Notes: generated by a model not told the origin, from the sequence alone. Counted from the stretch's first letter, positions 30,980 to 64,000 are shown. The stretch is 64,000 nucleotides of DNA from an uncultured Spirochaetota bacterium (GCA_963827275.1 CAWHAA010000009.1:104923-168922); one strand, 5' to 3'. Numbers and translations: made by a program.

Positions 30980-31074
30980 GGGGTCAGAGCAACTTTGACG
31001 GGGTCAGAGCAACTTTGACGGGGTCAGAGCAACTTTGACGGGGTCAGAGCAACTTTGACGGGGTCAGAGTAACT
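30980..31074. repeat. 20-bp tandem repeat GGGGTCAGAGCAACTTTGAC x4 plus a partial fifth copy
   Basis: Four identical abutting units, then GGGGTCAGAGTAACT. Confidence 0.95.
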
Positions 31075-31540
31075 GCTCTTCAATACCGGCGTAGCCGATA
31101 ACCCACTACCAGCTCTTAGCAGTATAATCACTTAAACAAAATAAAATACCCACTTATATATTTGAAACATAGAATTCTGGATTACCCGCCTGCATTGTTG
31201 CCCTGGTATAACTATTCCCGTTTTATTTTGACTTTTTCTAAATCAATGAGCTATTATAAAATAAGAATATTCATTCAGTTACGCGTAATCCATGCACAAC
31301 ACGTAGGATACTATCATGAAAAAAAAATCATACTATGGCTATCGTTTCTTTGTGTATTCGTCATGGATCTGTCATCTGGCCTTTATTGAGTGCAGGGGGA
31401 TAGTTTATAAACAGGGATGGGGGGATCGCAGGTAATGATGCGGTCCGGGTGCCATAAAAAGCATAAAATCCAGATAAAGAATTGATTTATTATCACCCCG
31501 GGCCTACAGTGTGATCATTCAATACAACTGCGGGGCATGT

Positions 31541-44705: not shown

Positions 44706-47631
44706 CTACCAGCATACAAGAAAGCACGTTGACTGGACCTTTGACTCCACCGAATAGCCGTAGGAGTTTTCCGCCACGACGATTATCTTGTAGGATACCC
44801 CGCCGGCCAGGCTGTTGAATTGATAGCTGCCCGTGGATACGTCCTTCGGGCCCTGCAGGGCGTTGTACACGTTCCCTCCTGACGCGTAGATGACGCCGTT
44901 GAGGCCGATATACGCCCGCACCGTCGGCGCGGGGTTGCCGGCCGTGGAGAAGGTCGGCCGCGCGACTGTTATCGAATTGGTATCGTAATCGGATATGGAC
45001 AGGCCGTTTAATACCGGCGCCACGCCCGTGGTGCTCTGGACTATCTGCTGTACCGAATACCCGGCGCCGTTTTCCGCCACGACGATTATCTTGTACGCCG
45101 TATTGGTACTCAACCCGCTGAACTGGTACCCGCCCGTGGAGACGTCCCTCGGGCCCTGCGTGTACCCGTACACTATGCCGGACAACACCCCGATGATGCC
45201 GTCGATGCCGATGTACGCCCGCACCGTCGGCGCGGGGTTGCCGGCCGTGGATAATGTCGGCCGCGCGATGGTTATCGAGCCTGAGTCAAATGCCGATACC
45301 GACAGGCTGTTCAGCACCGGGGCTATGCCCGCCGTGCCCTGGATGATCTGCTGCGTCGAATACCCGGCGCTGTTCTGCGCCACGACGATTATTTTGTACG
45401 TGGTGCCGGTGCCCAGGCCGCTGAACTGGTATCCGCCCGCGGACACGTCGACCGGGCCCTGGAGCGCGCCGCTCACCGCCGCGCCGGTAAGCGTGATGGT
45501 GCCATTGAGCCCGATGTACGCCTGTACCGTCGGCGTCGGGTTGCCTGCCGTGGAGAAGGTCGGCTGCGCGACGGTTATCGAACCCGTATCGAAGCTGGAT
45601 ACGGAGAGGCTGTTCAACACCGGCGCCGCCGGCGCGTGCGCCGTGCCCTGGTTTATCAGCTGCACGGAATAGCCGATGCTGTTTTTCGCGACAACGATGA
45701 TCGTGTATGATGTCGCGTCGTTCAGGCCGCTGAACTGGTATCCGCCGGCGGATACGTCTGCCGGTTCCTGCAGGTAGCCGTACACCGTTCCGCTTAACAC
45801 CGTGATGAGGCCGTTGTACCCTATGAAGGCCCGCACCGTCGGCGCCGGGTTGCCGGCGGTGGAGAAGGTCGGCTGCGCGATGGTTATCGAATCGTCGTCA
45901 AAGCCGGAGATGGACAGGCTGTTCATTACCGGCGCCATGCCCGTGGTGCCCTGGATGATCTGCTGCACTGAATACCCGGCGTTGTTCTGCGCCACGATGA
46001 TTATTTTATACGTCGTATCGGCGCGCCAGGCCGCTGAACTGGTAGCCGCCCGAGGAGACGTCGACCGGGCCCTGGAGCGCGCCGCTCACCGCCGCGCCTG
46101 ACGCCACGATGGTGTCATTGAGCCCGATGTAGGCCTGTACCGACGGCGCCGGGTTGCCGGCGGTGGAGAAGGCCGGCTGCGCGACGCTTATCGAACCCGT
46201 ATCGAAACCGGAGATGGAGAGGCTGTTCAACACCGGCGCCATGCCCGCCGTGCCCTGGACTATCTGCTGCACGGAATAGCCGGAGCTGTTTATCGCCGTG
46301 ACGATTATTTTATACGCCGTATTGGTGCTCAACCCGCTGAACTGAAACCCGCCCTGGGACACGTCTATCGGACCCTGGATCGCGCCGCTCACGGCCGAGC
46401 CGGAAACCGAGATGATGTCATTGAGCCCGATGTACGCCTGTACCGCCGGCGTCGGGGTGCCGGCCGTGGAGAAGGCCGGCTGCGCGAGCGTTATCGAGCC
46501 GGTATCAAAGGCGGATACGGACAGGCTGCTCAGCACCGGCGCTGCCGGCGCGCCCTCCGTGCTCTGGGCTATCTGGCGCGTTGAATACCCGATGCTGTTT
46601 TTCGCGACGACAACGACCATGTACGATGTCCCCACGTCCAGGCCGCTGAACTGGTAGCCGCCCGTGGACACGTCGATCGGGCCCTGGAGCGCGCCGTTCA
46701 CCGTCTGGCCGAACACCGACATGGAGCCGTTACGCCCGATGTACGCCTCTACCGTCGGCGCGGGGTTGCCGGCGGTGGAGAAGGTCGGCTGCGCGATGCT
46801 TATCGAACCCGTATCGAAGCCGGTTACGGAGAGGCTGTTTAAGAGCGGCGCTATGCCCGCCGTGCCCTGGATGATCTGCTGCACCGAATACCCGGCGTTA
46901 TTTTCCGCCACGACAATTATCTTGTAGGTGTTATTGGGCGTCAGGCCCCAGAAAGAGCCGTCGTACGCGGACACGTCCAGCGGGCCCTGGAGCGCGCCGC
47001 TCACCGTTGAACCCGACACCGAGATGGTGTCGCTGAGCCCGATGTACGCCTGTACCGCGGGCGCCGGCTTGCCGGCCGTGGAGAAGGTCGGCTGCGCGAC
47101 GGTTATCGAATACGCGTCGGAATATGATATCGACAGGCTGTTCATTACCGGCGCTATCTCGCTCGTGCGCTGCATGATCTGCCGTATCGAGTACCCGGCG
47201 GTGTTATGCGCCTCGACGAGTATCGTGTAGGTCGTTCCCTCGGTGAGCCCCTTGAATTCACATCCGGACATGGATACGTCGACCGGGCCCTGCAGGGTGT
47301 CGTAGATAAACGAGCCGATGACCCACACGGAATTGCTGAGCCCGATATACGCGTGCAGCGTGGGCTCGGGATCGCCGGCGGTCGAGAGGGTCGGCCGCGC
47401 GATCGTGATTGAATTCGATCCTGAACCCGTGATCACCAGGTTGTTCAGGACGGGCGCGGTGCCGGCGCCGAAAATGACCTCGACGAGGCGATCAACATAC
47501 GACATGAGCAATAATGTCGACATCGTGGAACCGGAATCTTCCTGAGGCTTGGTCGTGTTAGGGTTGTTGCATGCAAGCGAGAATGCCAGCATGACAGCGG
47601 CAATAATAAAAAGAGTGCGTTGTCTTTTCAT
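44706..47631 (-). CDS. Large surface lipoprotein with nine ~100-aa Ig/FN3-like repeats; one frameshift near 46020
   Basis: Lipobox SLAC; repeat APVLNSLS...I..AQPTFSTAGNPAP.V.AYIG...QGP.DVS.GGYQFSGL...Y.IIVVA.N..GYS. ORFs 46006-47631 and 44706-45995 join within repeat 5. Confidence 0.8.
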
Positions 47632-47950: not shown

Positions 47951-49117
47951 TCAGTACCAGAGCACGCGGTTGTTCCCGGCGTCAACGATATAGAGCCCGC
48001 TTGAATCGACCGCCAGCCCCATCGGTCCGCTGAGGCTTGTGGCGCTCGGAAACAGCGGCGTGCCGTTGTTGAGGTAATTCGTGGTAAAATCGCCGGATTG
48101 ACCGTACACGCGCGCTGCAGTCGTGCCGGCGCCCGGATAGAAGAGCACGCGGTTGTTGGCGAAATCGGAGATATAGAGGCCGTTTGCGGCAAGCGCCAGC
48201 CCGCTGGGCCGGTTCAGGCTGTCCGCGCTGATCCCGCCGTTGTTGGGTGTGCTCGCCAGGAAGCTGCCGAACTGGCCGTACACGCGCGACGCGGTCGTGC
48301 CGGCGCCGGAATAGAAGAGCACGCGATGGTTTCCGTAATCCGAGATGTAAATGCCGTCCGCGGCAACGGCGATTGAGTTGGGATGGCTCAGGCTGTCGGC
48401 GCTGACCCCGCCGTTGTTCTCGCCGTTCGTGGTGTAGCCGCCTGCCTGTCCGTACACGCGCGAGGCGGTCGTGCTCGTGCCGGCATAGTACAACACGCGG
48501 TTGTTGTCCGCGTCGGCGATATAGACGCCGCCCGCGTCAACAGCGACGCCGACGGGCCCGCTCAGGCTGGCAGCGCCGAGACCGCCGTTGTTCTCGTCGT
48601 TCGTGGTGAAGCCGCCTGCCTGTCCGTACACGCGCGAGGCGGTCGTGCTCGTGCCGGCATAATACAGGACGCGGTTGTTGTCCGCGTCAGCGATATAGAC
48701 GCCGCCCGCGCTGACAGCGACCCCGGCAGGCGAATTCAGGCTGTTCGCGCTGATGCCGCCGTTATTGGCCAGCATTGAAGTGAAGCTGCCAGACTGCCCG
48801 TACACGCGCGACGCGGACGTGCTGCCGCCCTCGTAAAACAGGACGCGGTTGTTGGACCTGTCAACGATATACACCCCGTCAGCGCTGACCGCCGTGTCAC
48901 AGGGCAGGAACAGGCTGTTTGTTCCCGGGAGGAGATTGCCGTTGTTTATGTAATTCGTGGCGAAGCTGCCCATCTGTCCGTACACGCGGCGGGCGGTCGT
49001 GGACGGGAAGAGGGACGGGGCTACCGGGACGATCTGCCGGTCGATTACATCCGTATAGATATCGCCGCATCCCAGCGCGGCAAAGGCCAGCAGTATGATT
49101 CTGATTGCCTGTTTCAT
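47951..49117 (-). CDS. NHL-repeat (beta-propeller) lipoprotein
   Basis: Lipobox ALGC; repeated P.G.AV...G.YIAD..NNRVL.Y....A.RVYGQ. Confidence 0.88.
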   Translation of the reverse strand: MKQAIRIILLAFAALGCGDIYTDVIDRQIVPVAPSLFPSTTARRVYGQMGSFATNYINNGNLLPGTNSLFLPCDTAVSADGVYIVDRSNNRVLFYEGGSTSASRVYGQSGSFTSMLANNGGISANSLNSPAGVAVSAGGVYIADADNNRVLYYAGTSTTASRVYGQAGGFTTNDENNGGLGAASLSGPVGVAVDAGGVYIADADNNRVLYYAGTSTTASRVYGQAGGYTTNGENNGGVSADSLSHPNSIAVAADGIYISDYGNHRVLFYSGAGTTASRVYGQFGSFLASTPNNGGISADSLNRPSGLALAANGLYISDFANNRVLFYPGAGTTAARVYGQSGDFTTNYLNNGTPLFPSATSLSGPMGLAVDSSGLYIVDAGNNRVLWY

Positions 49118-53671: not shown

Positions 53672-53909
53672 GAACAGACCCTCCCTGAAAAATTTAATTT
53701 ATAAGACCCTTTAACCCTCATTCTCCATCAAACGGACCGAAAACTCCCATTTGATAACGTGAAGATCGCCTTTTCCTGGCCTTCAACATACTCTTAGACG
53801 ACATGAGGATTGATTTGGGAAAAAATTTTACTCTGACACCCTCCCGGCCGCCGAACTCCCCCCTGTCCCCCGAAGGGGGCACGAATGAAGAAACTTTTTG
53901 TAGGGTAAT

Positions 53910-54401
53910 ATGAATAAAGGTATTAAAACGCCTGACTATGTTGTGCAGCTGGCAAGAGACATGAGGAATAATCTAACCGCCAGTGAACATTTATTATGGG
54001 AGAGGTTGAAGAGAAAACAGCTTGAAGGATATACATACAGATGCCAGCATCCGATATATCGCTACATCCTTGATTTTTACTCTGATGAAAAGCTTCTGGC
54101 GATTGAATTGGATGGCGATATTCATAATGAAAGATAAGACTATGATGAGTATCGTGATGAATTTATGAAGAGTCTTGGGATAAAAAGATTGCGATTTGAC
54201 AATGATGAAGTCGTGAAAAACATCAATTCAGTTATAGATAAAATTATGTTAGAACTGATCCTGCAGCTCAATTGCCATCTAAAATTCCTCGATTTAAAGC
54301 GTTTTGATGAAGAACGGAACAAGCTGTTGTGGGTTTCGGCGTGGTATGAGGTCAAAAGGAATACTGTATCAATTTCTGGATTGAATGCCTTTTTTGAATG
54401 A
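53910..54401 (+). pseudogene. DUF559 (Vsr-like) endonuclease with internal TAA (54135-54137), 3' end running into repeat copy 1
   Basis: AR.MR.N.T.SE..LW..L...QL.G...R.QHPI..YILDFY....LAIELDG..H, then RD.FM...GI..LRF.N in the same frame. Confidence 0.8.
54264..54401 (+). repeat. Island repeat copy 1 (5'-truncated)
   Basis: Matches the 3' 138 bp of copies 2-4 (CAGCTCAATTGCCATCTAAAATTCCTC...TTTGAATGA). Confidence 0.9.
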
Positions 54402-54450
54402 TTTGAAAGTCGGGCAAATGTATGGACCAGTTGCCCGACATGTTGTCAAT

Positions 54451-54783
54451 TTAATCTTTTTCGTTGCTTATTACCCGATCAGCCTTGCCTGTTTTCAACG
54501 GTATGATTTTACGATATTCGCTCTCCCTGGCCTTCATCGCGTCCCACAGCTGAACATCGGTCTGGAGTCCCATCCAGAATTCAACTGTTGTGTGGAAGAG
54601 CCGGGAAAGGCGTATCGCGGTGTCCGGAGTGATGGCGCGTTTCCCGGAGATGATCTCATTGACCCGGACCCTGGTTATGCCGAGACGCTCCGCCAGCTGC
54701 TGCTGGGTAAGTCCGAGCGGCTCTATGAATTCATATTTCAGGATTTCTCCCGGAGGTGTGGGTCTTCTATTCTTTGGTAACAT
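54451..54783 (-). CDS. higA: HigA-family antitoxin (XRE HTH)
   Basis: PPGEIL..EFIEPLGLTQ..LA..LG.....VNEI..GKRAIT..TA.RL...F.TT.EFW..LQ. Confidence 0.9.
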   Translation of the reverse strand: MLPKNRRPTPPGEILKYEFIEPLGLTQQQLAERLGITRVRVNEIISGKRAITPDTAIRLSRLFHTTVEFWMGLQTDVQLWDAMKARESEYRKIIPLKTGKADRVISNEKD

Positions 54784-54799
54784 AGTTGTGCTCCTTTGC

Positions 54800-55083
54800 T
54801 CAATGATATTGAACGAGCTCGACATTATAGGCATCGTGTTCCCTGAATTCAAAACAGAGGCGCCATGGTCCGTTTATCGATATGGCCCACTGTCCCTGCC
54901 GGTCGCCAGAAAGGGGATGAAGCCTGTTCGATGGTGGCGCACTAAGGTCAATCAGGTCGTATGCCCTGTTAAGCATGTCGAGCTTCCTTGAATAAGGCGA
55001 TCGGCAATTTCAGACGGCACCTTTTTGTTGCGGCCGTTGTTCCAGAATTCCTCCAGCCATTTATGCTTGAAATGCCGTATCAT
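54800..55083 (-). pseudogene. higB: HigB/RelE-family toxin, one frameshift near 54990
   Basis: MIRHFKHKWLEEFW..G, then in the shifted frame KLDML..A..L.DL..PPSNRLHPL.GDR.GQW.I.INGPWRLCF.F....A..VE..QYH. Confidence 0.85.
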
Positions 55084-55195
55084 TATTACAATGTAATGAG
55101 TCATATGACATATGACAAGTATTTTATTTATCGGGGTTATATTAACGGGCATAAAAAGGAGGCTTTGATGTAATGCTATTTGAGCCGGTGGCTAT

Positions 55196-55455
55196 AAACA
55201 GAACAGCCCGAACCTGACGGTTAGGGCTGTGTAAGCGGCTGCGGGCCAAAAACGACACGGGTCGAACTTTTTCCGCATCCCACGAGCTGCCGAAACAGGC
55301 TGGTGCAACGGGAATACAGCTCAATTGCCATCTAAAATTCCTCAATTTAAAGCGTTTTGATGAAGAACGGAACAGGCTGGTGTGGGTTGTCGGCGTATTA
55401 TGAGGTTAATAGGAATAATTTACCAGTTTCTAGATTGAATGCTTTTTTTGAATGA
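55196..55455 (+). repeat. Island repeat copy 2 (~260 bp)
   Basis: Hairpin ACAGCCC-GAACC-TGAC-GGTT-A-GGGCTGT plus conserved body. Confidence 0.92.
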
Positions 55456-55641
55456 TAAGAATACAGTCATAATAAAAATTTGCGAGTATACAAGAACTAT
55501 ATTTCAAACCAGCGACATGAGAGGAAATGGAAAATAGTTGCCATAATTGATGGTCGGGTATATTATATAAACAAAAATCGATTTACAAAATTATAAACAA
55601 AGTAAAAAATAAACCAGGAATATGCAAGAGGTGATAGCATC

Positions 55642-55878
55642 GTGAAAGCAATAAAAAAATCGGTAATAATGAAGAGCTCCGGCAGAATAACGCTGTCCGG
55701 TCTTCCTTTTAAAAAAGGAGAAAAATTAGAGGTGATTGTTTTCGCAGATGAAAAGAGGAGCGCTCTTGCCAAGGAAATGAAGTCACTGTTTAAGGAAACC
55801 CAAAAGCTTCCAGTAATAAAAAAAATATCTGAAGCGGACATTATTAAGGAAATACAGGATTACAGATCCGGAATATGA
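55642..55878 (+). CDS. Putative antitoxin of a PIN-family TA pair
   Basis: 78 aa, beta-rich N-terminus (L..LPF..GE..EVIV), C-terminal I.EI..YR; overlaps the PIN start. Confidence 0.65.
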   Translation: MKAIKKSVIMKSSGRITLSGLPFKKGEKLEVIVFADEKRSALAKEMKSLFKETQKLPVIKKISEADIIKEIQDYRSGI

Positions 55879-56289
55879 AGGTGGTCATAGATACAAATGT
55901 ATTGGTCTCCGCCATTATCAAGGATAAAACACCGGAAAAAGTTATACTCTTCATTGTTGAACATCCTGATATAGAATGGGTGGTAACTCGCAAGATAATC
56001 AAAGAGTACAAGAATGTACTTTCACGTCCTAAATTCAATCTCCCCGTACAATATTTTAAAGCATTGGTTTTCTCTCATTGATGGTGCCACGAAGCGCATT
56101 GAAACTTCAATAAAAATTAAGTTTCCACGCGATCAAAAAGATGCTTCGTTTCTGGAATGTTCGATCGATTCGGATGCTGATTATTTGATAACCGGCGATA
56201 AGGATTTTATCGGAGCACGGAGACTTTTAAATACGACAATATTATCGGTTTCTCAATTTGAAAAACTTGTATGCACTAGATTAAAATAG
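55875..56289 (+). pseudogene. PIN-domain toxin (PIN_3 type), one frameshift near 56050
   Basis: VVIDTNVLVSA, I..EY..VL.RPKF, then RD.KD..FLE......ADYLITGDKDF in the shifted frame. Confidence 0.85.
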
Positions 56290-56336
56290 AAGTCACATAT
56301 TATAAATAACATAGCCGTCGGCAAATGCCTGCATAT

Positions 56337-56596
56337 AAAACAACACAGCCCGAACCAAGTGGTTTGGGCTGTGTAAGCGGTTGCGGGCCAAAAACGACAC
56401 GGGTCGAACTTTTTCAGCGTCCCACGAGCTGCCAAAACAGGCTGGTGCAACGGGAATACAGCTCAATTGCCATCTAAAATTCCTCAATTTAAAGCGTTTT
56501 GATGAAGAACGGAACAGGCTGGTGTGGATTTCGGCGTGTTATGAGACCAATAGGAATAATGTATCAATTTCTGGATTGATTGCTTTTTTTGAATGA
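56337..56596 (+). repeat. Island repeat copy 3 (260 bp)
   Basis: Colinear with copies 2 and 4. Confidence 0.92.
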
Positions 56597-56626
56597 ATTT
56601 CCAATATCATACAATATCAACGAGGG

Positions 56627-56721
56627 TTGCCCAACAATATTGGAGAAATTCAGATTTGTTGGGCAAATCCTGCTTGACTGGTTGCCCAACAATATGTATA
56701 TTATTGGATAATGTTGGGCAA
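56627..56721 (+). promoter_or_regulatory. Sigma70 promoter overlapped by two inverted operator pairs
   Basis: TTGACT(56674)-N17-TATATT(56697); TTGCCCAACA-N20-TGTTGGGCAA at 56627-56666 and again at 56682-56721. Confidence 0.7.
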
Positions 56722-56736
56722 TAAAGGGTTATCGCC

Positions 56737-57052
56737 ATGAGTACGATAAAAGAAGTTCTTAAAGAAGAACTTGCAAGGCTGAAGAGGCTTAATGGACGTT
56801 ATATCCATGATATAGCAAAACTGCCTTCAGGATCATTGTCAATAAAATCCAGGAAGGGCAATGAATATGCCTACAGGGCATACCGCAGCAATGAATAAAG
56901 TAAAAACCGATTATATAGGACCGGCCGATTCTGATGATGTTAAAAAGCTGAAAGAGAAGATCACAAAGCGAAAGAAATTGGAATCGTTACTGAAGACCAC
57001 CAATGAGCAGATCACCGAGATAGAGAGGTCTTTGCGTGGAAAAAAGATTTGA
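56737..57052 (+). pseudogene. Small basic partner/antitoxin of the nucleotidyltransferase, one frameshift near 56895
   Basis: MSTIKEVLKEEL.RL...LP.GSL..K...G..YAY..YR, then KV...YIG plus coiled coil in the shifted frame; overlaps the next gene. Confidence 0.65.
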
Positions 57053-57719
57053 GCTGTTTCATAAAGTCATAATCAAACTTGGTGAAACCGGTGTTTTAAC
57101 GGATATTATTCTCATCGGCAGCTGGTGCCTTTATTTGTATCGCAATGTATTTAAAGATGCCGATACCATGCCGGCGGTTAGAACTGTAGATCTGGATTTC
57201 CTTGTGCCCAATCCTCCGAAGATCAAACATAAAGTTGATATTACAAGGATACTTGAGGAACTCGATTTCGTTGAAGAATTTTCCCATCTCAGCGGCAATT
57301 CAAAATTCGTTCATCCTGACCTTGAGGTGGAGTTTATTATTCCGGAGAAGGGCAGGGGCAAAGACGGTCCGCATATCATCAAGGAAATCAATGTGCGCGC
57401 TCAGGGCCTGCGATATGTGGATCTATTGCAAGAATACACCATAATAATTCCGTTTGAAAATTATCCGGTAAAAGTGCCGGAGCCATCTGCCTTTGTCTTG
57501 CATAAGATACAGGTGAGCGGCAGAAGAAGTAAGAAAGAGAAAAGGGTTAAGGACCTGGAAACAGCCACAGGTCTGGGTGAATATCTGTTAACTCGCGACG
57601 ATCAGATTGTAAAGATGCAGGATATTTATAGGAGTCTTCCGGTTAAATGGAGGAAGGAGATCCTGGAGATAGCGAAAGAACATTCAGAGAGTATTTATAA
57701 GATTCTGCATGAGAAATGA
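57036..57719 (+). CDS. GSU2403-like nucleotidyltransferase-fold protein (AbiEii-like putative toxin)
   Basis: LIGSW, RTVDLDF, VEF..P, P.P.AF.LHK and K..KD motifs. Confidence 0.75.
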   Translation: MEKRFELFHKVIIKLGETGVLTDIILIGSWCLYLYRNVFKDADTMPAVRTVDLDFLVPNPPKIKHKVDITRILEELDFVEEFSHLSGNSKFVHPDLEVEFIIPEKGRGKDGPHIIKEINVRAQGLRYVDLLQEYTIIIPFENYPVKVPEPSAFVLHKIQVSGRRSKKEKRVKDLETATGLGEYLLTRDDQIVKMQDIYRSLPVKWRKEILEIAKEHSESIYKILHEK

Positions 57720-57743
57720 CACTTGTTCATAACGCATAGGCTG

Positions 57744-58003
57744 AAAACAACACAGCCCGAACCAAATGGTTTGGGCTGTGTAAACGGCTGCGGGCCAAAA
57801 ACGACACGGGTCGAACTTTTTCACCTTCCCACGAGCTGCCCAAACAGGCTGGTGCAACGGGAATACAGCTCAATTGCCATCTAAAATTCCTCAATTTAAA
57901 GCGTTTTGATGAAGAACGGAATAGGCTGGTGTGGGTTTCGGCGTGTTATGATGTCGCTAAACAAGATATGAAAATATCCGGGTTGATAGCTTTCTTTGAA
58001 TGA
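57744..58003 (+). repeat. Island repeat copy 4 (260 bp)
   Basis: Colinear with copies 2 and 3; more diverged in the last ~50 bp. Confidence 0.92.
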
Positions 58004-58353
58004 TTATAATTATTAGTATTCAAGAACGATTTTCGAACTTGTTAACAAACCTGCGATAGGTGAGATGAGATATGAACCGAAATGAACCATTTTGAACCAT
58101 CAAATTATATTGCCAACATAATACAAAATAGAATATACAAATAAAAACTAATGTGACATAATCCTTTTTTGATTTTTTCATCTTGCACGCAGTAGTGTTT
58201 CACAAATTATTTTTTATGTGACTTGTTCTTCATCTGTCATCGCTTCATATGTAAAAATAATCTGAATTATTTATTTCGCCACTTACTAATATTTAAATGA
58301 ATCCGCCACTTTTGACAGGTTCATAATTTAAATATTACGTGAGGAGAATTTAT

Positions 58354-58995
58354 ATGAAAAAGATTGTGAAGAAAGCTAAAAGTAAAAGACTTAACTGGAG
58401 TATGATTAAATCATACTATGTCATGGGTCTGCCCCTGGACTACATTTCAAGAAAGTATGGGATCTCCATCGAGACCTTGCGCACCAGAAGGAAACGTGGG
58501 AAGTGGGAGGAAGAAAAGAAGGCAGTTTGAAGCAGAGTCTTTTTAAAGGCAAAGGATGTCTATATGAATTGTCTTGTCGAACATCAAGTCAGATCACGAG
58601 AAAGATATGTTAAATACTATATCGAAGCATCCCATAAAACCATTGGAATGATGGATAACTGTGAGGATCCAAAGTCGCTGGTCATGTTGATGAATTCGCT
58701 AGAGCAATGTCAGTCTGGGGAGTTTAAGGCGTTAGCTATCACAGATAAGACAAATGAATATCTTTTCCGCCAGGTCGATCATCGTGAGATCAATGATGAA
58801 TCCCAGCAGCAGGTTCATATTATTGATAAGGCTATTGAAAATCTCAGAAATGACAAGGAGAACGTCATTAAGTTTTTCAAGGTATTGTATGAATATGGAC
58901 GACTTAAAGGGGTCGATATTCAAGCATTATTGGATGAAAAGGTTAAAGCAGAAGAGAATGGGTCAGAAGAGAAGAAGCCTGAGGAACGACACTGA
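58354..58995 (+). pseudogene. Phage terminase small subunit-like HTH protein with in-frame TGA (58528-58530)
   Basis: NW..IK..Y..G.....IS.KYGIS..TL..R..R.KW; downstream ORF 58564-58995 is in the same frame. Confidence 0.5.
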
Positions 58996-59167
58996 TCATT
59001 CGGCCCAAACAATTCTATTTGCCTCAAGAATCTGGTTCCCGTGTATACTGGCAGGGGAACCAGATTCTAATTATTTTTACACTGAAAAATTATTACGATG
59101 TGACACTATTTGTCATGGTACATTCTATACTATTTATTAAGATGGTTATTCAAGGAGAATTGATGGT

Positions 59168-59482
59168 ATGATGAAAGCATATATAACTTTTTGCGAGCCC
59201 CAGGATGAATTCGAGCATCAGCTTGTAGTGCATGAGAATCTTCTACAAGAAGAAGAGATCTTTTTCGCCGGTCCCTCCCATTCATGCGATCTTTGCGGAG
59301 CTTCGTTCAATAATAAACGGCTTATGCTGGACGCATGCCTTGATAGTGAAAAGAATGCATGGGGTTGCATCTGCTCCAGATGCTTTATTAAATATGCCTG
59401 TAAGATGGGTCCGGGAAAAGGACAAATGTTTACTCATCTTCAAAGCGGCGAGTGGCTTTTAACGGCTGGATACAATCAATAA
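59168..59482 (+). CDS. Small Cys-rich zinc-ribbon hypothetical protein (phage-like)
   Basis: CDLC...DA...WGCICSRCF...GPGKGQ; AAGGAG SD. Confidence 0.6.
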   Translation: MMKAYITFCEPQDEFEHQLVVHENLLQEEEIFFAGPSHSCDLCGASFNNKRLMLDACLDSEKNAWGCICSRCFIKYACKMGPGKGQMFTHLQSGEWLLTAGYNQ

Positions 59483-59535
59483 TTTGTAGTTGCAATGTTT
59501 CATCGTTATCAGACATATTGTGTTTCCAATTGTAT

Positions 59536-60249
59536 TTACAAAATTGATAGTGGTGGTGGTTCGGGGATATTGATGTACTTAAAACGTTCTAACCAAATCT
59601 TCCGAATCATTGGCGCTATGTTATTTTTAAATTCTTTATATGTGAATTCGTCACTTTTTGCGTTATTGCACCAGTAACAACATAGTACCATGTTCCCAGA
59701 CTCGTATCCTTTATTGGGTTCTTTCTGATCAATCTCTATTGAATGACCTCGATTGTAAAATCGTTTGGTATAAAAGCGTTGCGGATTATTGAAATCACCT
59801 TTTGTTGTTTCTATAATCTTATCAATATTATTTTTTGTTATACCACAATAATGACATTGAGGTGAACCATCGGCCTTTATACTTTGATCATAAAGCCTCT
59901 TAATATCTTCTTTAATATTTGAATTGTTAAAATCATTTTTGAAATATTCTTTGATTATAGTATTAAATGTTTCACCGAAATGTTTATTGAAGATCTCATC
60001 AATTTTATCAATATTATCTTCTGCATCTTTATCGGATTTAAGTTGCCATGAGTAAGTATACTCATTTTCTTTGTTATTATCTAAATTAAAATTTATAAAA
60101 TCATCATAGGTTATTGTTGATACATCTTTTCTAGTTGTATCGTTATTGATCCCGTGAATTAAAGTATGGTAAAAAAATATCTCTAGTTTTCTTTTTAATG
60201 TTTTTTTGCATAGTTCTTTTGCCTTTCTTTCTATTTCTTTATCGTTCAT
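59536..60249 (-). CDS. HNH-type endonuclease, very AT-rich
   Basis: CHYCG...IEIDQKEPNKGY..GN.VLCCYWCNNAKSD. Confidence 0.75.
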   Translation of the reverse strand: MNDKEIERKAKELCKKTLKRKLEIFFYHTLIHGINNDTTRKDVSTITYDDFINFNLDNNKENEYTYSWQLKSDKDAEDNIDKIDEIFNKHFGETFNTIIKEYFKNDFNNSNIKEDIKRLYDQSIKADGSPQCHYCGITKNNIDKIIETTKGDFNNPQRFYTKRFYNRGHSIEIDQKEPNKGYESGNMVLCCYWCNNAKSDEFTYKEFKNNIAPMIRKIWLERFKYINIPEPPPLSIL

Positions 60250-60423
60250 GTATTACTCCTGGAAATAGTATTATTCAATAAAATAATGAGCTTCAGTCTT
60301 TTTAATTGCTGAAGTAGCATTTATCAAAGGTATATTATTTAATTTAACAAGGTGGTCTTGTTTAGTCTGCTGTATATAAAAAAACTTGGGTATACTTTTT
60401 TGCATAATGATTGCAAATTATAG

Positions 60424-61344
60424 TCATTGATACACCGCCAGACTCTCTTCTAGCATCTCCTTCATGGCATCCCGCAATTCCTTCGGCTCAAGAATCTCGA
60501 CCTCTTTCCCATAGAAAAAAAGCTGCTTGCACAGGTAAATGTCGTCAGCCACGGTAAAGGTCGCCTCGTACCTGCCATCCCCCAGCTCCTTGATCTCCGG
60601 TTCAAGGATGGAGATGGTCTGCTCGATGGGCTGTAGCACCGCCTCTGTGAAGCGAATCTTCACATGGTATGTCTCGCCGATGAATGAGCCGAGCGATTCT
60701 TTGTACACCTCGGCCGGATCGCGGATTTCATCATCGAAGAACTGGTCTGTGACCACCAGGTTCTCGATCCTGTTGACGATAAACTGCCGGACTTCGGGGA
60801 ATCCCGGCCTCCGGCCGTGCAGGTAGAGGTTGTTGCCGCGAAATATCATGAAGTGCGGATTGAGGATGAGCTCCTTTATGCGCGCGCCGGTGTTGGTGGT
60901 ATAATTGAACTTGATTTGTCGTTTCTCGAGACAGGCAAAATAGATACGTGCCAGCATCCAGAGGCAGTCGATCGGGTGCTTCCTGATGAAGTTCTTTAAT
61001 ATAAGCTCACGTGTTGAATCGTGGACCACGAAGGATGAATATAGCGATGCAATGCGGAGTGTCATCTCATCTGAAATAGGCTCGGCCAGTTCGATTTTAC
61101 GACCGCCTTTGCGAACATCAACCCGGAGTCCCAATTCTTTCTTAAGATGTTTTTTGATGTACTCCCTGATTGTTTTGTCCGTGGGTGCCTCTCGCTCCTC
61201 TATGTTGAGCATGGAAGCCAGTGATGTACCGTTCCATTCGACTGGATCCTTGTTTCCCTGCAAAAGTGCGAGAATGTGCAGGTAGCGTCTGAGTATTCCC
61301 ATGGGTGTTTTGGGATCTGGCAGGAGAAGAGTTTTTCGTTCCAT
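60424..61344 (-). CDS. HTH-WYL-WCX transcriptional regulator
   Basis: N-terminal wHTH; I.F.Y, P......NLYL.G, R.F..NRI and L..YG..VEILEP.ELR. Confidence 0.85.
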   Translation of the reverse strand: MERKTLLLPDPKTPMGILRRYLHILALLQGNKDPVEWNGTSLASMLNIEEREAPTDKTIREYIKKHLKKELGLRVDVRKGGRKIELAEPISDEMTLRIASLYSSFVVHDSTRELILKNFIRKHPIDCLWMLARIYFACLEKRQIKFNYTTNTGARIKELILNPHFMIFRGNNLYLHGRRPGFPEVRQFIVNRIENLVVTDQFFDDEIRDPAEVYKESLGSFIGETYHVKIRFTEAVLQPIEQTISILEPEIKELGDGRYEATFTVADDIYLCKQLFFYGKEVEILEPKELRDAMKEMLEESLAVYQ

Positions 61345-61474
61345 GTTATACTCCAAATATGTACAAAGGTGTACATCCCTCGTACAGGTGGCAAGTGTAG
61401 ATTCTGTATATTATACTCATAATGAATAGGCGATCCAGGTGCATTGTCCAGCATAAAATATTTAAGAGGATTAT

Positions 61475-63210
61475 ATGATGAAAAAATCGCCGCGTTTGAA
61501 CAGGCGGGGCTCTTGCTCCGAATGTAATTTTATTGATACTGATTTTCCATTTAATCGACACATGGCTGGTTATTCTATACGGATATTGCGGTCCTATGGT
61601 CTCGTAGAACAGATGCTAGGGTATGTTCTTTCTTGTATGACTTTGAAAGAGCGTCGCAGCATGGTCAAATCTTTTTATACAGACACGAAAAAATCGGGAG
61701 ATAATGTTGAGGGAACAGGTAATTTCAGGAGGGTAATATCCGGCCTGAGCCGTCCAGGGAATATAGATGACGATATAGTCGAAGATATCCTTGACGGTAC
61801 TACTGTAATGAATGAACGCGCTGTTGTCCATGTTCTTACCTCGTGGCTCCGCGTGGCCCTGGTTTCACATGACCGGAGGGCAGGGGATGGATTGGAGAAG
61901 CGTTCAGAAGAATTGAAAAAGACCTTTGGTCTCGATGATCGGGATATTTCCCTCCTTATCTTCTTGTGCTGCACCTATGCGATCAACGTGGAGTACCTGA
62001 AAGAAATTCAGTCTGAAATGACATATAGCAGTTATCTGAGACTGGCATCAATTGCGACAGGTCTACCGATGCGTACTGTGCATGAGCGTCTGGGATCGAA
62101 TGGCCGTCTTTTTAAGACAGGTATTATTGAGAGCCATGGACACGCTTCGCCCGGAATATTTCATGCTAAACGATAATATCTCGGATTTTCTTTCAGGCTC
62201 CTCAGACTATACGCTTATAGAGAAGTGTATCCGCCTGGACAGGAGGAAAGGTTTTTGATATTGACTCGTATGGCATCGATAAAGAGAACGTGGGAATTAT
62301 CCGTGACATCCTGTCCGCGGGTAGCCCGGTCAACATACTCCTACACGGCACCGCAGGTACCGGCAAGACGGAGTTCGCGCGCTCGGTTGCGGCCCTGACC
62401 GGCAAGAAGGTCTATTTTCTCAACCACCGGCCTGAGTCCGGGACCAGGAAGCAGGGCAGGGGAAGCGATGATCCCCTGCTGATATTGAATGTTGCGGGTA
62501 ATTCCGTGTCCGCCGACCAGGGGATTATCATCGTGGACGAGGCAGATTATATCCTGAATACCGGGAGACCGTTTCAGCCTCGTCGCCGACACTGTCGAGA
62601 AGGGTATCCTCAACGATTTCCTTGACCGGAGCATGTCGCAGATGGTCTGGATTTCCAATCGGTCACGAACATGGAAGAGTCGACGCTACGCCGATTTTCC
62701 TACAGCCTCCATTTTAACTCGCTATACCAGCAGGGAGCGGGAGAACATCTGGAATGCCATACTTGCGAAGCATCCCCTGCGAAAATATATCAGTCCCGGT
62801 CTTGTACGCAAGCTCTCGCTCGAGTTCAGGGTCAACGCGGGGAGCATCGCATCCGCGCTGAAGGCCACGGAGATGATGTTCCACGGGAAAAAGAAGTCCG
62901 CGGAGGCTGTCACGGCCTGCCTGCGCCGTCTTCTGGAGCGACACCAGGAGATGATCCACCGCGATTTCCGTAAGCGAAAGAAGCTCCATGACCTGACCGA
63001 CAGGTATGACGTTGCTTCGCTCAACACGGATACGCCGCCGGACCGGGTTATTGCCTCGGTTTCCGGTTTTGCGGACATGTGGAAAGACTCATCCGAAACG
63101 CATGATGCGAATCTGAACCTGCTCTTCTGGGGGCCGCCCGGCACGGGCAAGACCGAGTTCGTCAAATACCTGGCAGATAAAGCTGGCATGCGGCTTGTTG
63201 TGCGTCGTCG
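61475..63210 (+). pseudogene. Double-AAA ATPase, several frameshifts, truncated after the second Walker A
   Basis: ILLHGTAGTGKTEF, IIIVDEAD, WISN...STLRRF.YS and LLFWGPPGTGKTEF; the sequence then changes abruptly. Confidence 0.75.
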
Positions 63211-64000
63211 GTTGATGATTTAGGCCGGCAAGAAAAAGAAGACAGCGCGATTGCTGATTTTAAGCGGGTTATCGCTCTTGATCCGTCTGACTATTTGGCA
63301 TTTAGCGTTCTTTGGGATGTCGGCAGTTCCCGGGATAGCGTTAAAAGTCATCTGTTGGCTGATTTCGCTAAGGCAACTAAAAAAAGATTGTCTCGCGCCG
63401 GGGATTACTCTGATCGCGGCGCCATAGCTTCAAAATTCGGCTTAACGCGGGAGGCGTTGGACGACTTTGATCAAGCTATCGCGCTCGACTCGAATCTTTC
63501 TCGGGCTTATTATTACCGGGCATCTTTGTTTAAAGACCTGGGTCTTTTTGATCAAGCAATAGTCGGTTTTATCAAGGCTATAAAGATTGATCCGTCCAGA
63601 GAGGCGGCGCGCGAAGAGTTGGAGCAGTTGTTTGGTTTTGATGTGTTGAGCAGTTTTGTCAGGAGTTTTACGCCTAAGCAGATGTGGCCGGCAAATTGGC
63701 CGATTAAAGGTGAGTTTGGTAAGAAGGATGTATTTCCCAGCCAGGAATCGCCAGGTATCAATACCACCGCTGATTCGGCACTGGCACAGGAATATTTTAA
63801 TCGCGGCCGGGCATCGTTGCAGTATGGCCAGACGGATGATGCCTTAGCAGATTTGAAGCGGGCGGTCAAGCTTGACCCCAAGCGTTGGGATGCTTTTTAC
63901 ACGTTGGGGATAGCTCGGTTGGCTTTAGGCGATGTTGATTCGGCAATCGCGGATTTCTCAAAGACCATCCAGATTAATCCTCAATACAAAAGGGCGTTGT
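63211..64000 (+). CDS. TPR-repeat protein fragment (no start seen, runs off the window edge)
   Basis: Open frame: AIADFKRVIALDP...EALDDFDQAIALDSNLSRAYYYRA...DALADLKRAVKLDP...AIADFSKTIQINPQY. Not in the ORF track. Confidence 0.75.

Follow-up and report, generated by a model that had tools for sequence, protein, structure and literature searches.

Integrons hold arrays of short, shuffled cassettes, rich in toxin-antitoxin (TA) modules, to which new cassettes are added in a polar manner, and TA modules persist by addiction. The array described here consists of TA-like gene pairs separated by copies of a ~260-bp direct repeat and lies at positions 53910-58003 of a 64,000-nucleotide stretch of DNA (the window) from an uncultured Spirochaetota bacterium (GCA_963827275.1 CAWHAA010000009.1:104923-168922). 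Integron arrays have attC boxes and an IntI integrase and recombine single-stranded attC sites, whereas the spirochaete array has neither, and its chemistry would be that of double-strand serine recombination. The array is very likely the variable left end of a composite island that sits at a tRNA-Asp gene, on its 3′ side, and was built through serial site-specific insertion by a family of elements with two large serine recombinase (LSR) genes.

Staphylococcal cassette chromosome (SCC) and SCCmec composites, with their tandem SCC-like cassettes and CcrAB/CcrC recombinases, resemble this array in the LSR pair, in attachment site (att)-bounded tandem cassettes without a recombinase and in defence cargo, so far as the available text of PMC11470126 describes them. 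They differ in target, which is rlmH rather than the 3′ end of tRNA-Asp, and in size; SCC cassettes are given there as 17-26 kb, against about 1-2 kb and a single TA module for the spirochaete units. In the serine integrases of streptococcal rumA integrative and conjugative elements and of phage Mx8 (PMC4701971), as in archaeal spindle-shaped virus (SSV)-type suicidal integrases (PMC7253208), the att site lies inside the integrase gene, integration swaps the C-terminus and a C-terminal fragment stands at the far end of the element; all three features are shared, as these sources present them in the parts available. The SSV-type enzymes are tyrosine recombinases, and the accessible part of PMC7253208 reports no tandem insertions. 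Tycheposons and other tRNA-seeded accretion (bioRxiv 10.1101/2020.12.28.424599) are alike in successive integrations at one tRNA end with older units outward; as far as the accessible text of that preprint goes, they use mostly tyrosine integrases and roughly 40-nt partial-tRNA repeats, whereas the spirochaete units share a core of about 6 bp and their repeat derives from the element.

By analogy, the locus may work like SCC composite islands combined with elements that have their att site inside the integrase gene. The original prediction, a model's reading of the sequence, named the array as the best candidate for an undescribed system in the window; in kind it is better placed as a tRNA-Asp-targeting LSR element with non-autonomous islets, similar to SCC composites. 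Attachment sites inside integrase genes and serial tRNA accretion are already known; what appears to be new is that a selected recombinase tail is retained on each TA islet. Unlike the Mx8, rumA and SSV fragments, as described in the available texts, the spirochaete fragment is kept and codon-constrained on every recombinase-free islet, and it is predicted to dock at the binding site of recombination directionality factors (RDFs). Neither this family nor kilobase TA islets each keeping a selected recombinase tail were found in the literature searched, from which most subscription journals were absent.

Repeat units and their anchor at tRNA-Asp

The genome that holds the window (G000) is a 4.13-Mb assembly of 11 contigs, 92% complete. 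Three full repeat copies of ~260 bp were located at 55195/6-55455 (R2), 56337-56596/7 (R3) and 57744-58003/4 (R4), with 88-96% identity across 208 nt, and a partial copy (R1), a 141-bp 3′ fragment, at 54264-54404, in agreement with the original prediction. The four copies have direct orientation at one locus, and blastn and nhmmer searches of the whole assembly gave none beyond the array. The intervals of ~0.8, 0.9 and 1.15 kb hold HigA/HigB on the minus strand, a small open reading frame (ORF) with a PIN_3 gene, and a small ORF with an NTP_transf_8 nucleotidyltransferase (NTase) gene. The GC content drops across this stretch from about 0.55-0.65 to about 0.3-0.5.

No sequencing runs behind the window were found (best share 0.24), and the assembly was therefore checked only through independent genomes. 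Of 61 genomes searched at the DNA level, 13 including G000 matched, and the matches of eight from the same genus and one from another genus were convincing; G008, G029 and G047 (26-30 nt) and G037 (E 5.5e-4) were left out as weak repeat matches. A protein profile run against 122 genomes of the class gave matches in 12 including G000, the gain being G025, from a third genus, and one weak match that was dropped. In these relatives, which are Spirochaetota metagenome-assembled genomes, repeat-delimited TA islets occur in varying number, and cargo and order differ between genomes. The same pattern of repeat and cargo in relatives rules out an assembly artefact as its source. The proposal of one two-gene module per interval holds for the three pairs of the window but not for relatives, where the cargo comprises HigBA, PIN and NTase pairs, MNT-HEPN pairs, DUF3024 with HigBA, and also single Fic and single AAA_14/DUF4143 genes. 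Viral contigs gave no match by protein or by a 20-nt pattern.

In G007, G010, G011, G012, G015 and G021, the last copy of the array consists only of the first ~50 nt of the repeat, a hairpin, followed by a 6-bp core and then by tRNA-Asp(GTC) on the minus strand; arrays in metagenome loci likewise end at tRNA-Asp. The first (leftmost) copies lack this hairpin and mostly have another, host-type terminator-like hairpin, resembling the empty-looking sites of G016 and G008. Such sites, with terminator, core and tRNA and no repeat, were also seen in G001 and G005. The unit is therefore core, conserved 213 nt, cargo, hairpin and core, inserted at the tRNA 3′ end, and its boundary lies inside the repeat, at the core 46 nt in, and not at the repeat ends where the original prediction had drawn it. 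The conserved stem, variable loop and minus-side T tract described there are present, with compensatory changes across 22 distinct copies (one pair is T-A in 11, A-T in 8 and G-C in 2). The hairpin is probably a replacement tRNA terminator, a designation drawn from position and covariation, since it was absent from the output of a terminator scanner with its loop and T-run limits. The features of the array are as follows.

53830-54263, plus strand: DUF559 unit (Pfam PF04480; blastn; G014 synteny), flanked by a GC-rich hairpin, dispersed and not a cassette; its 3′ end abuts the truncated R1
54264-54401, plus strand: R1, 3′ part of the tail frame (about codons 25-70); core and arm of the left junction lost
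54451-54783, minus strand: HigA-like antitoxin (HTH_3), start inferred from the sequence
54800-55083, minus strand: HigB/RelE-like TA toxin, frame change near 54988
55188-55241, minus strand: R2 left arm, marking where the higBA islet ends on the right; a tRNA terminator-like hairpin whose T tract is on the minus strand and which is homologous to the final ~16 LSR2 codons
55242-55455, plus strand: R2 crossover core (CGG at 55242; probable central GG at 55243-55244), P′ arm and 70-codon tail frame with +1 nt near 55389
55642-55878, plus strand: small ORF (91% to the G013 copy), putative antitoxin paired with PIN
55875-56289, plus strand: PIN_3 (VapC-like) gene, frame change near 56044
56330-56383, minus strand: R3 left arm, a terminator-like hairpin that closes the PIN islet
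56384-56596, plus strand: R3 core, P′ arm and intact 70-codon tail frame
56737-57052, plus strand: small partner ORF of the NTase (104 aa in relatives), frame change near 56895
57036-57719, plus strand: NTP_transf_8 nucleotidyltransferase, intact, putative TA toxin
57737-57790, minus strand: R4 left arm, a terminator-like hairpin that closes the NTase islet
57791-58003, plus strand: R4 core, P′ arm and intact 70-codon tail frame; probable left end of a larger island
58004-64000, no strand assigned: left portion of a larger island of low GC, truncated where the contig stops, with a fragmented AAA ATPase

Each cargo pair has one frame change and the R2 tail an extra nucleotide, while only 1 of 31 core-like G000 genes tested has a frame change; either the cargo has decayed or the assembly has local errors close to where the contig stops. 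The DUF559 gene had been listed with the array. It belongs instead to a separate dispersed family with 9 further blastn matches in G000 (contigs C4, C5 and C10), is flanked by GC-rich hairpins and has an in-frame stop at 54135-54137; synteny between G000 and G014 stops at 53828, just before it.

An integron-like array with unusually long attC sites (a cluster of attC sites lacking integrase, CALIN) would suit TA-rich cassettes in either orientation, and the bottom strand of R4 folds end to end (z -2.2), which prompted an attC reading. This was rejected: shuffled sequences fold as well as R3 (z -1.3), neither strand in the surroundings of R2-R4 has a RYYYAAC or GTTRRRY box, and the copies do not conserve the position of GTT. 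The four tyrosine recombinases of G000 are unlinked to the array, and none passes the cut-off of the IntI model TIGR02249 (0 matches in this 92% complete genome). An integron would also leave the tRNA anchoring and the coding frame described below unexplained, and is considered extremely improbable. The original prediction had correctly set the repeat apart from attC, insertion sequence (IS) and clustered regularly interspaced short palindromic repeat (CRISPR) types. CRISPR repeats are about 25-50 bp, with spacers similar in size, and here 260-bp repeats alternate with gene-bearing intervals of 0.8-1.15 kb. An IS or a miniature inverted-repeat transposable element (MITE) was rejected on the four direct copies at one locus. 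The sole Rfam match was rliH at a chance-level E of 0.3, and a pdif/Xer interpretation, judged by eye, was dropped.

Serine recombinases and the 70-codon tail frame

Beyond the last repeat of G013 lies a 62.5-kb island that has DISARM genes and ends at tRNA-Asp. At this end stand two LSR genes, for proteins of 501 (LSR1) and 549 aa (LSR2), with an 81-aa ORF between them; both proteins have Resolvase, Recombinase and Zn-ribbon domains. The pair also adjoins tRNA-Asp in G002, and the 3′ part of LSR2 does so in G004, as far as assembled, so that the linked recombinase for which a search had been proposed is found in relatives. The absence of an integrase or transposase from the window, noted in the original prediction, reflects an assembly gap, as contig C9 ends at the window's 3′ limit. 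In G013, G002 and G004 the LSR2 frame crosses the hairpin and the core and stops two codons on, in the tRNA antisense; the integrated LSR2 has 549 aa. Sister LSRs at tRNA-Asn, -Trp and -His likewise read into their own tRNAs.

The 213 nt that follow the core continue the frame of LSR2 for 70 codons up to a stop codon. A C-terminal recombinase piece accounts for about 210 of the 260 bp, a point that the original prediction overlooked. Since LSR2 is in frame with these codons across the core, the excised circle would encode a longer enzyme, of a predicted 617 aa. Intact tails were found in 14 of 23 located copies and, in a larger set that also takes in the G012 copy, in 18 of 27. The ratio of nonsynonymous to synonymous substitution rates (dN/dS) indicates purifying selection on the tail frame, at 0.24-0.28 against 1.2-2.0 in the other plus-strand frames. 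It was 0.24 for the 14 intact copies (0.135 for codons 8-50), against a column-shuffle mean of 0.89 with 0 of 200 shuffles as low. Over all 27 copies, broken ones included, it was 0.28, with 1.18 and 1.88 in the other plus-strand frames, and same-cargo pairs also gave 0.28. The stop codon is kept in three forms (TGA 10, TAA 3, TAG 1). Copies from G025 (genus g10) have the same length of 70 codons and the same register at 37-39% amino acid and 54-57% nucleotide identity, and the LSR2 remnant of that genome is collinear as far as the core, with a single additional base.

The copies share no start codon upstream of the core (CTG, TTG, TAG, TTT and others occur), and therefore the simplest user of the frame is LSR2 in the circle; fusion of the tail to LSR2 in the circle is considered probable. 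It was also considered that the region serves as a separate small protein starting near the core, or as a DNA binding region, with no fusion to LSR2. Database matches to the tail were confined to small stand-alone gene predictions (51-88 aa), with five short matches among 1.84 billion representatives; an in-frame Shine-Dalgarno sequence and ATG precede the core at a few higBA junctions; and LSR2 relatives of 66% identity stop at 519-524 aa. The one such relative whose surroundings were seen is the tRNA-distal member of an LSR pair in swapped order, and the tRNA-proximal member does read into the tRNA. The lack of a conserved start, the register fixed to the LSR2 frame in two divergent families and, for a DNA site alone, the codon pattern argue against this alternative, which appears decidedly improbable.

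The attachment site itself has the expected symmetry. The arm at the LSR end and the P′ arm are complementary at 13 of 16 positions about the central GG in the G013 type, a value reached by 3 of 20000 random positions, and the G025 arms, though different in sequence, are again complementary about the same GG (11/17). Inverted-repeat arms about the centre are a described form of LSR attP in the available text of PMC5499854. The core shared between units and sites is about 6 bp. In G010 (contig C29), a lone PIN islet, away from any tRNA, splits a dispersed repeat exactly at the core; uninterrupted copies of this secondary target number 8, in 5 of 17 genomes. The target is a ~120-bp palindromic repeat family (L144-L151), dispersed in 5 of the 17 genomes of the genus.

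These observations suggest a unit ordered as core, P′ arm, 70-codon tail, cargo, hairpin or P-derived arm, and core. A new unit would enter at the tRNA-side core, bring a replacement terminator hairpin and push older units outward. The TA islets, having no recombinase, would be moved in trans. The att site lies inside the tRNA-proximal LSR2 gene, which encodes 549 aa when integrated and would encode 617 aa in the excised circle. Homologous recombination between the 260-bp repeats may swap cargo, and the TA cargo would persist by addiction. The original proposal of units stacked at a single site agrees with this, traces of both site-specific and homologous recombination being seen.

It is also possible, if doubtful, that the islets are immobile, each being the TA-bearing left end of a full element whose interior and LSR genes were deleted up to the terminal hairpin, with the tail as a relic and order changed by homologous recombination. 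The 5′ half of the hairpin resembles the P′ arm, and 54-bp core-to-core mini-units without cargo (arm-loop-arm; L068:19199-19253 in G014, and in G012, L080 and G013) are as such a deletion would make, which suggests an origin of islets by deletion between the P′ arm and the 5′ half of the hairpin. The islet arms have decayed to the level of host arms, the window cargo is damaged, and a host-type terminator nearly identical to that of G016 lies inside the G013 array. Against immobility, several species have the same islets, bounded by the same ends, in differing orders, one islet stands alone and core-precise at the secondary site, 18 of 27 tails are intact, and dN/dS among same-cargo pairs is low, as given above. 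Stranding can account for the origin of the islets and does not conflict with their moving later.

Several findings weigh against serial insertion by the LSR family, or against the fused tail. Islet left arms match the P′ arm at 7-12 of 16 positions (7-8 in the window), overlapping host arms (5-10/16), and therefore the internal junctions are not clean attP sites. Neither tRNA-Asp, a true fmt orthologue nor the LSRs were found in the G000 assembly; the tie of the window to tRNA-Asp and the LSRs rests on synteny and on genes shared with the G013 island, and the gene order of G000 differs, about 11 kb separating the array from the mot block. With the queries used, most genomes that have arrays gave no LSR2. 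As to the tail, the pairwise dN/dS values are mutually non-independent, and 9 of 27 copies are broken, so that the selection signal may predate islet formation. No natural LSR-tail fusion was found in two protein searches; in one of them none of 17 candidates was a longer protein. Contigs from four public runs of four studies cover parts of the G013 LSR region, and one contig (run X1) spans the integrated LSR2-tRNA form; no circle junction was present in the contigs of these 4 runs among the loose ends listed, and contigs drop rare forms. In an array beside a tRNA-Trp LSR in G011, the 3 copies that were read have frames of 7, 7 and 25 codons and lack a long tail, and stacking therefore does not require the tail. 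The solved complexes that bear on the structural model are taken up below.

For G000 itself, the left flank is homologous to the left flanks of tRNA-Asp in 7 relatives, with some reordering, so its missing array end is probably in the gap beyond C9. The genes that it shares with the G013 element lie at 58-64 kb of the window, a 104-aa ORF (94% identical) and a WYL protein (53%).

Predicted structure and role of the tail

No Pfam family was assigned to the tail peptide in any of 14 members. In an AlphaFold2 model, residues 30-69 form a three-strand meander with a predicted local distance difference test (pLDDT) score of about 80, and the start is disordered. A fold search was uninformative (best Z 3.6), and the best ESM Atlas match, at 0.81, is lead-level only. 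Residues 525-549 of the LSR2 model are disordered and, with the start of the tail, would form a linker of about 55 residues. A model of LSR2(290-549) with the tail scored 0.71 against 0.00 for the best control, with at least 56% of contacts agreeing between runs and a partner pLDDT of 50-54; among solved pairs 116 of 157 reach the mark for such scores, as do 2 of 215 pairs that are mismatched. In the modelled interface, tail strand 47-53 lies on LSR2 strand 503-512 and on helices 355-382 and 460-467, at the base of the coiled coil. The tail β-hairpin is thus predicted to fold back onto the junction of DNA-binding domain 2 (DBD2) and the coiled coil. LSR-RDF complexes are already solved and the halves of split genes tend to pass such a comparison, and therefore the score may reflect likeness.

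RDFs bind this same DBD2/coiled-coil junction, mostly by strand addition, and SCCmec LSRs have extra C-terminal strands at the RDF site and pair sites loosely (PMC12286644, as far as its text was available). The SCCmec strands are permanent, whereas the spirochaete strands are encoded across the att site. Whether extra C-terminal β strands make SCCmec-type recombinases RDF-independent and non-directional is a question left open in the available part of PMC12286644. An incoming circle would make only the long form of LSR2 and must integrate, which favours the long form as the integrating one. Given the fusion, the chances are about even that the long circle form is integration-competent with relaxed directionality and the short integrated form restrained. 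A relaxed long form would also explain the re-use of occupied sites.

A role for the tail as a fused excision factor, favouring excision and blocking re-integration while LSR1 or short LSR2 integrates, is unlikely. The predicted docking site and β-strand addition match the RDFs of PMC12286644, which in the text available also reports that engineered C-terminal RDF fusions inhibit attP x attB recombination, and SprB prevents re-integration of SPbeta according to the accessible text of PMC5499854. The obligate long form of an incoming circle, which would have to integrate, speaks against such a role, as does Mx8, in which the long form has the higher activity according to the available part of PMC4701971. 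Plain domain completion by the tail is rated rather doubtful, a little less so than excision. A tentative possibility, rated below even odds, is a natural recombination-controlled switch, in which a ligand of the RDF site is encoded across attP and the circular or integrated state sets direction without a separate factor. The islets would then store tail alleles with a variable final hairpin, and the choice of junction would give integrase isoforms, an integron-like but serine-driven arrangement whose sites are spare parts of the enzyme.

The family would provide one enzyme in two natural forms, with and without such strands, together with about two dozen natural tail alleles and predicted att sites, and the strand question of PMC12286644, as posed in its available text, is therefore directly testable; it bears on the design of serine-integrase tools. 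For ecology, the locus would represent a non-integron route to compact, shuffled TA and defence arrays. Annotation misses such arrays because the "repeat" is an unannotated gene fragment.

Shuffling, sister elements and minor observations

The tail is a mosaic. Its first 100 nt are closer within a genome (0.121 vs 0.187), and its last 63 nt are closer among same-cargo copies (0.238 vs 0.323), with 0 of 2000 permutations as extreme in either case; L083 was grouped with G011 in this test, their arrays overlapping. The pattern fits exchange between repeats by homologous recombination, in addition to site-specific insertion.

At an internal junction of G013 (L025:18060-18114), the host-type terminator is nearly identical to the G016 empty site, which suggests transfer of array blocks between species. 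An 80-98-bp insertion, possibly a small MITE-like element, was seen at tail nt 118 in four copies (L027, G010:C8; L029, G010:C29; L025, G013:C3 449446-449738). In G025 (L127, about 9680-9800 of C12), a tail cut to codons 1-43 lies at a site without a tRNA and may be a second off-target insertion. At L081:8633-8651, repeat letters replace those of the tRNA-Asp 3′ end, probably through an assembly chimera.

The sister element at tRNA-Asn (L128, G007:C46) has the LSR types in swapped order, and the tRNA-proximal LSR again reads into the tRNA. In G011 (C1, about 201.8-224.6 kb; L137, L138, L132), a second array, unrelated to the first, comprises about 8 repeats, each of ~110 bp, and its cargo includes TA genes and others; it lies upstream of the LSR that reads into tRNA-Trp. 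The same tRNA-Asp is occupied in G006 (L063, C82 48.0-60.6 kb) by a 12.5-kb element with a long tRNA duplication and, by eye, terminase-like and integrase-like ORFs.

Elsewhere in the window, nine 303-bp tandem repeats at 44721-47457 resemble coding domain repeats, about six 174-bp tandem repeats at 47959-49001 lie inside a 399-aa ORF, and a perfect 20-bp tandem repeat of about 5 units is found at 30980-31079.

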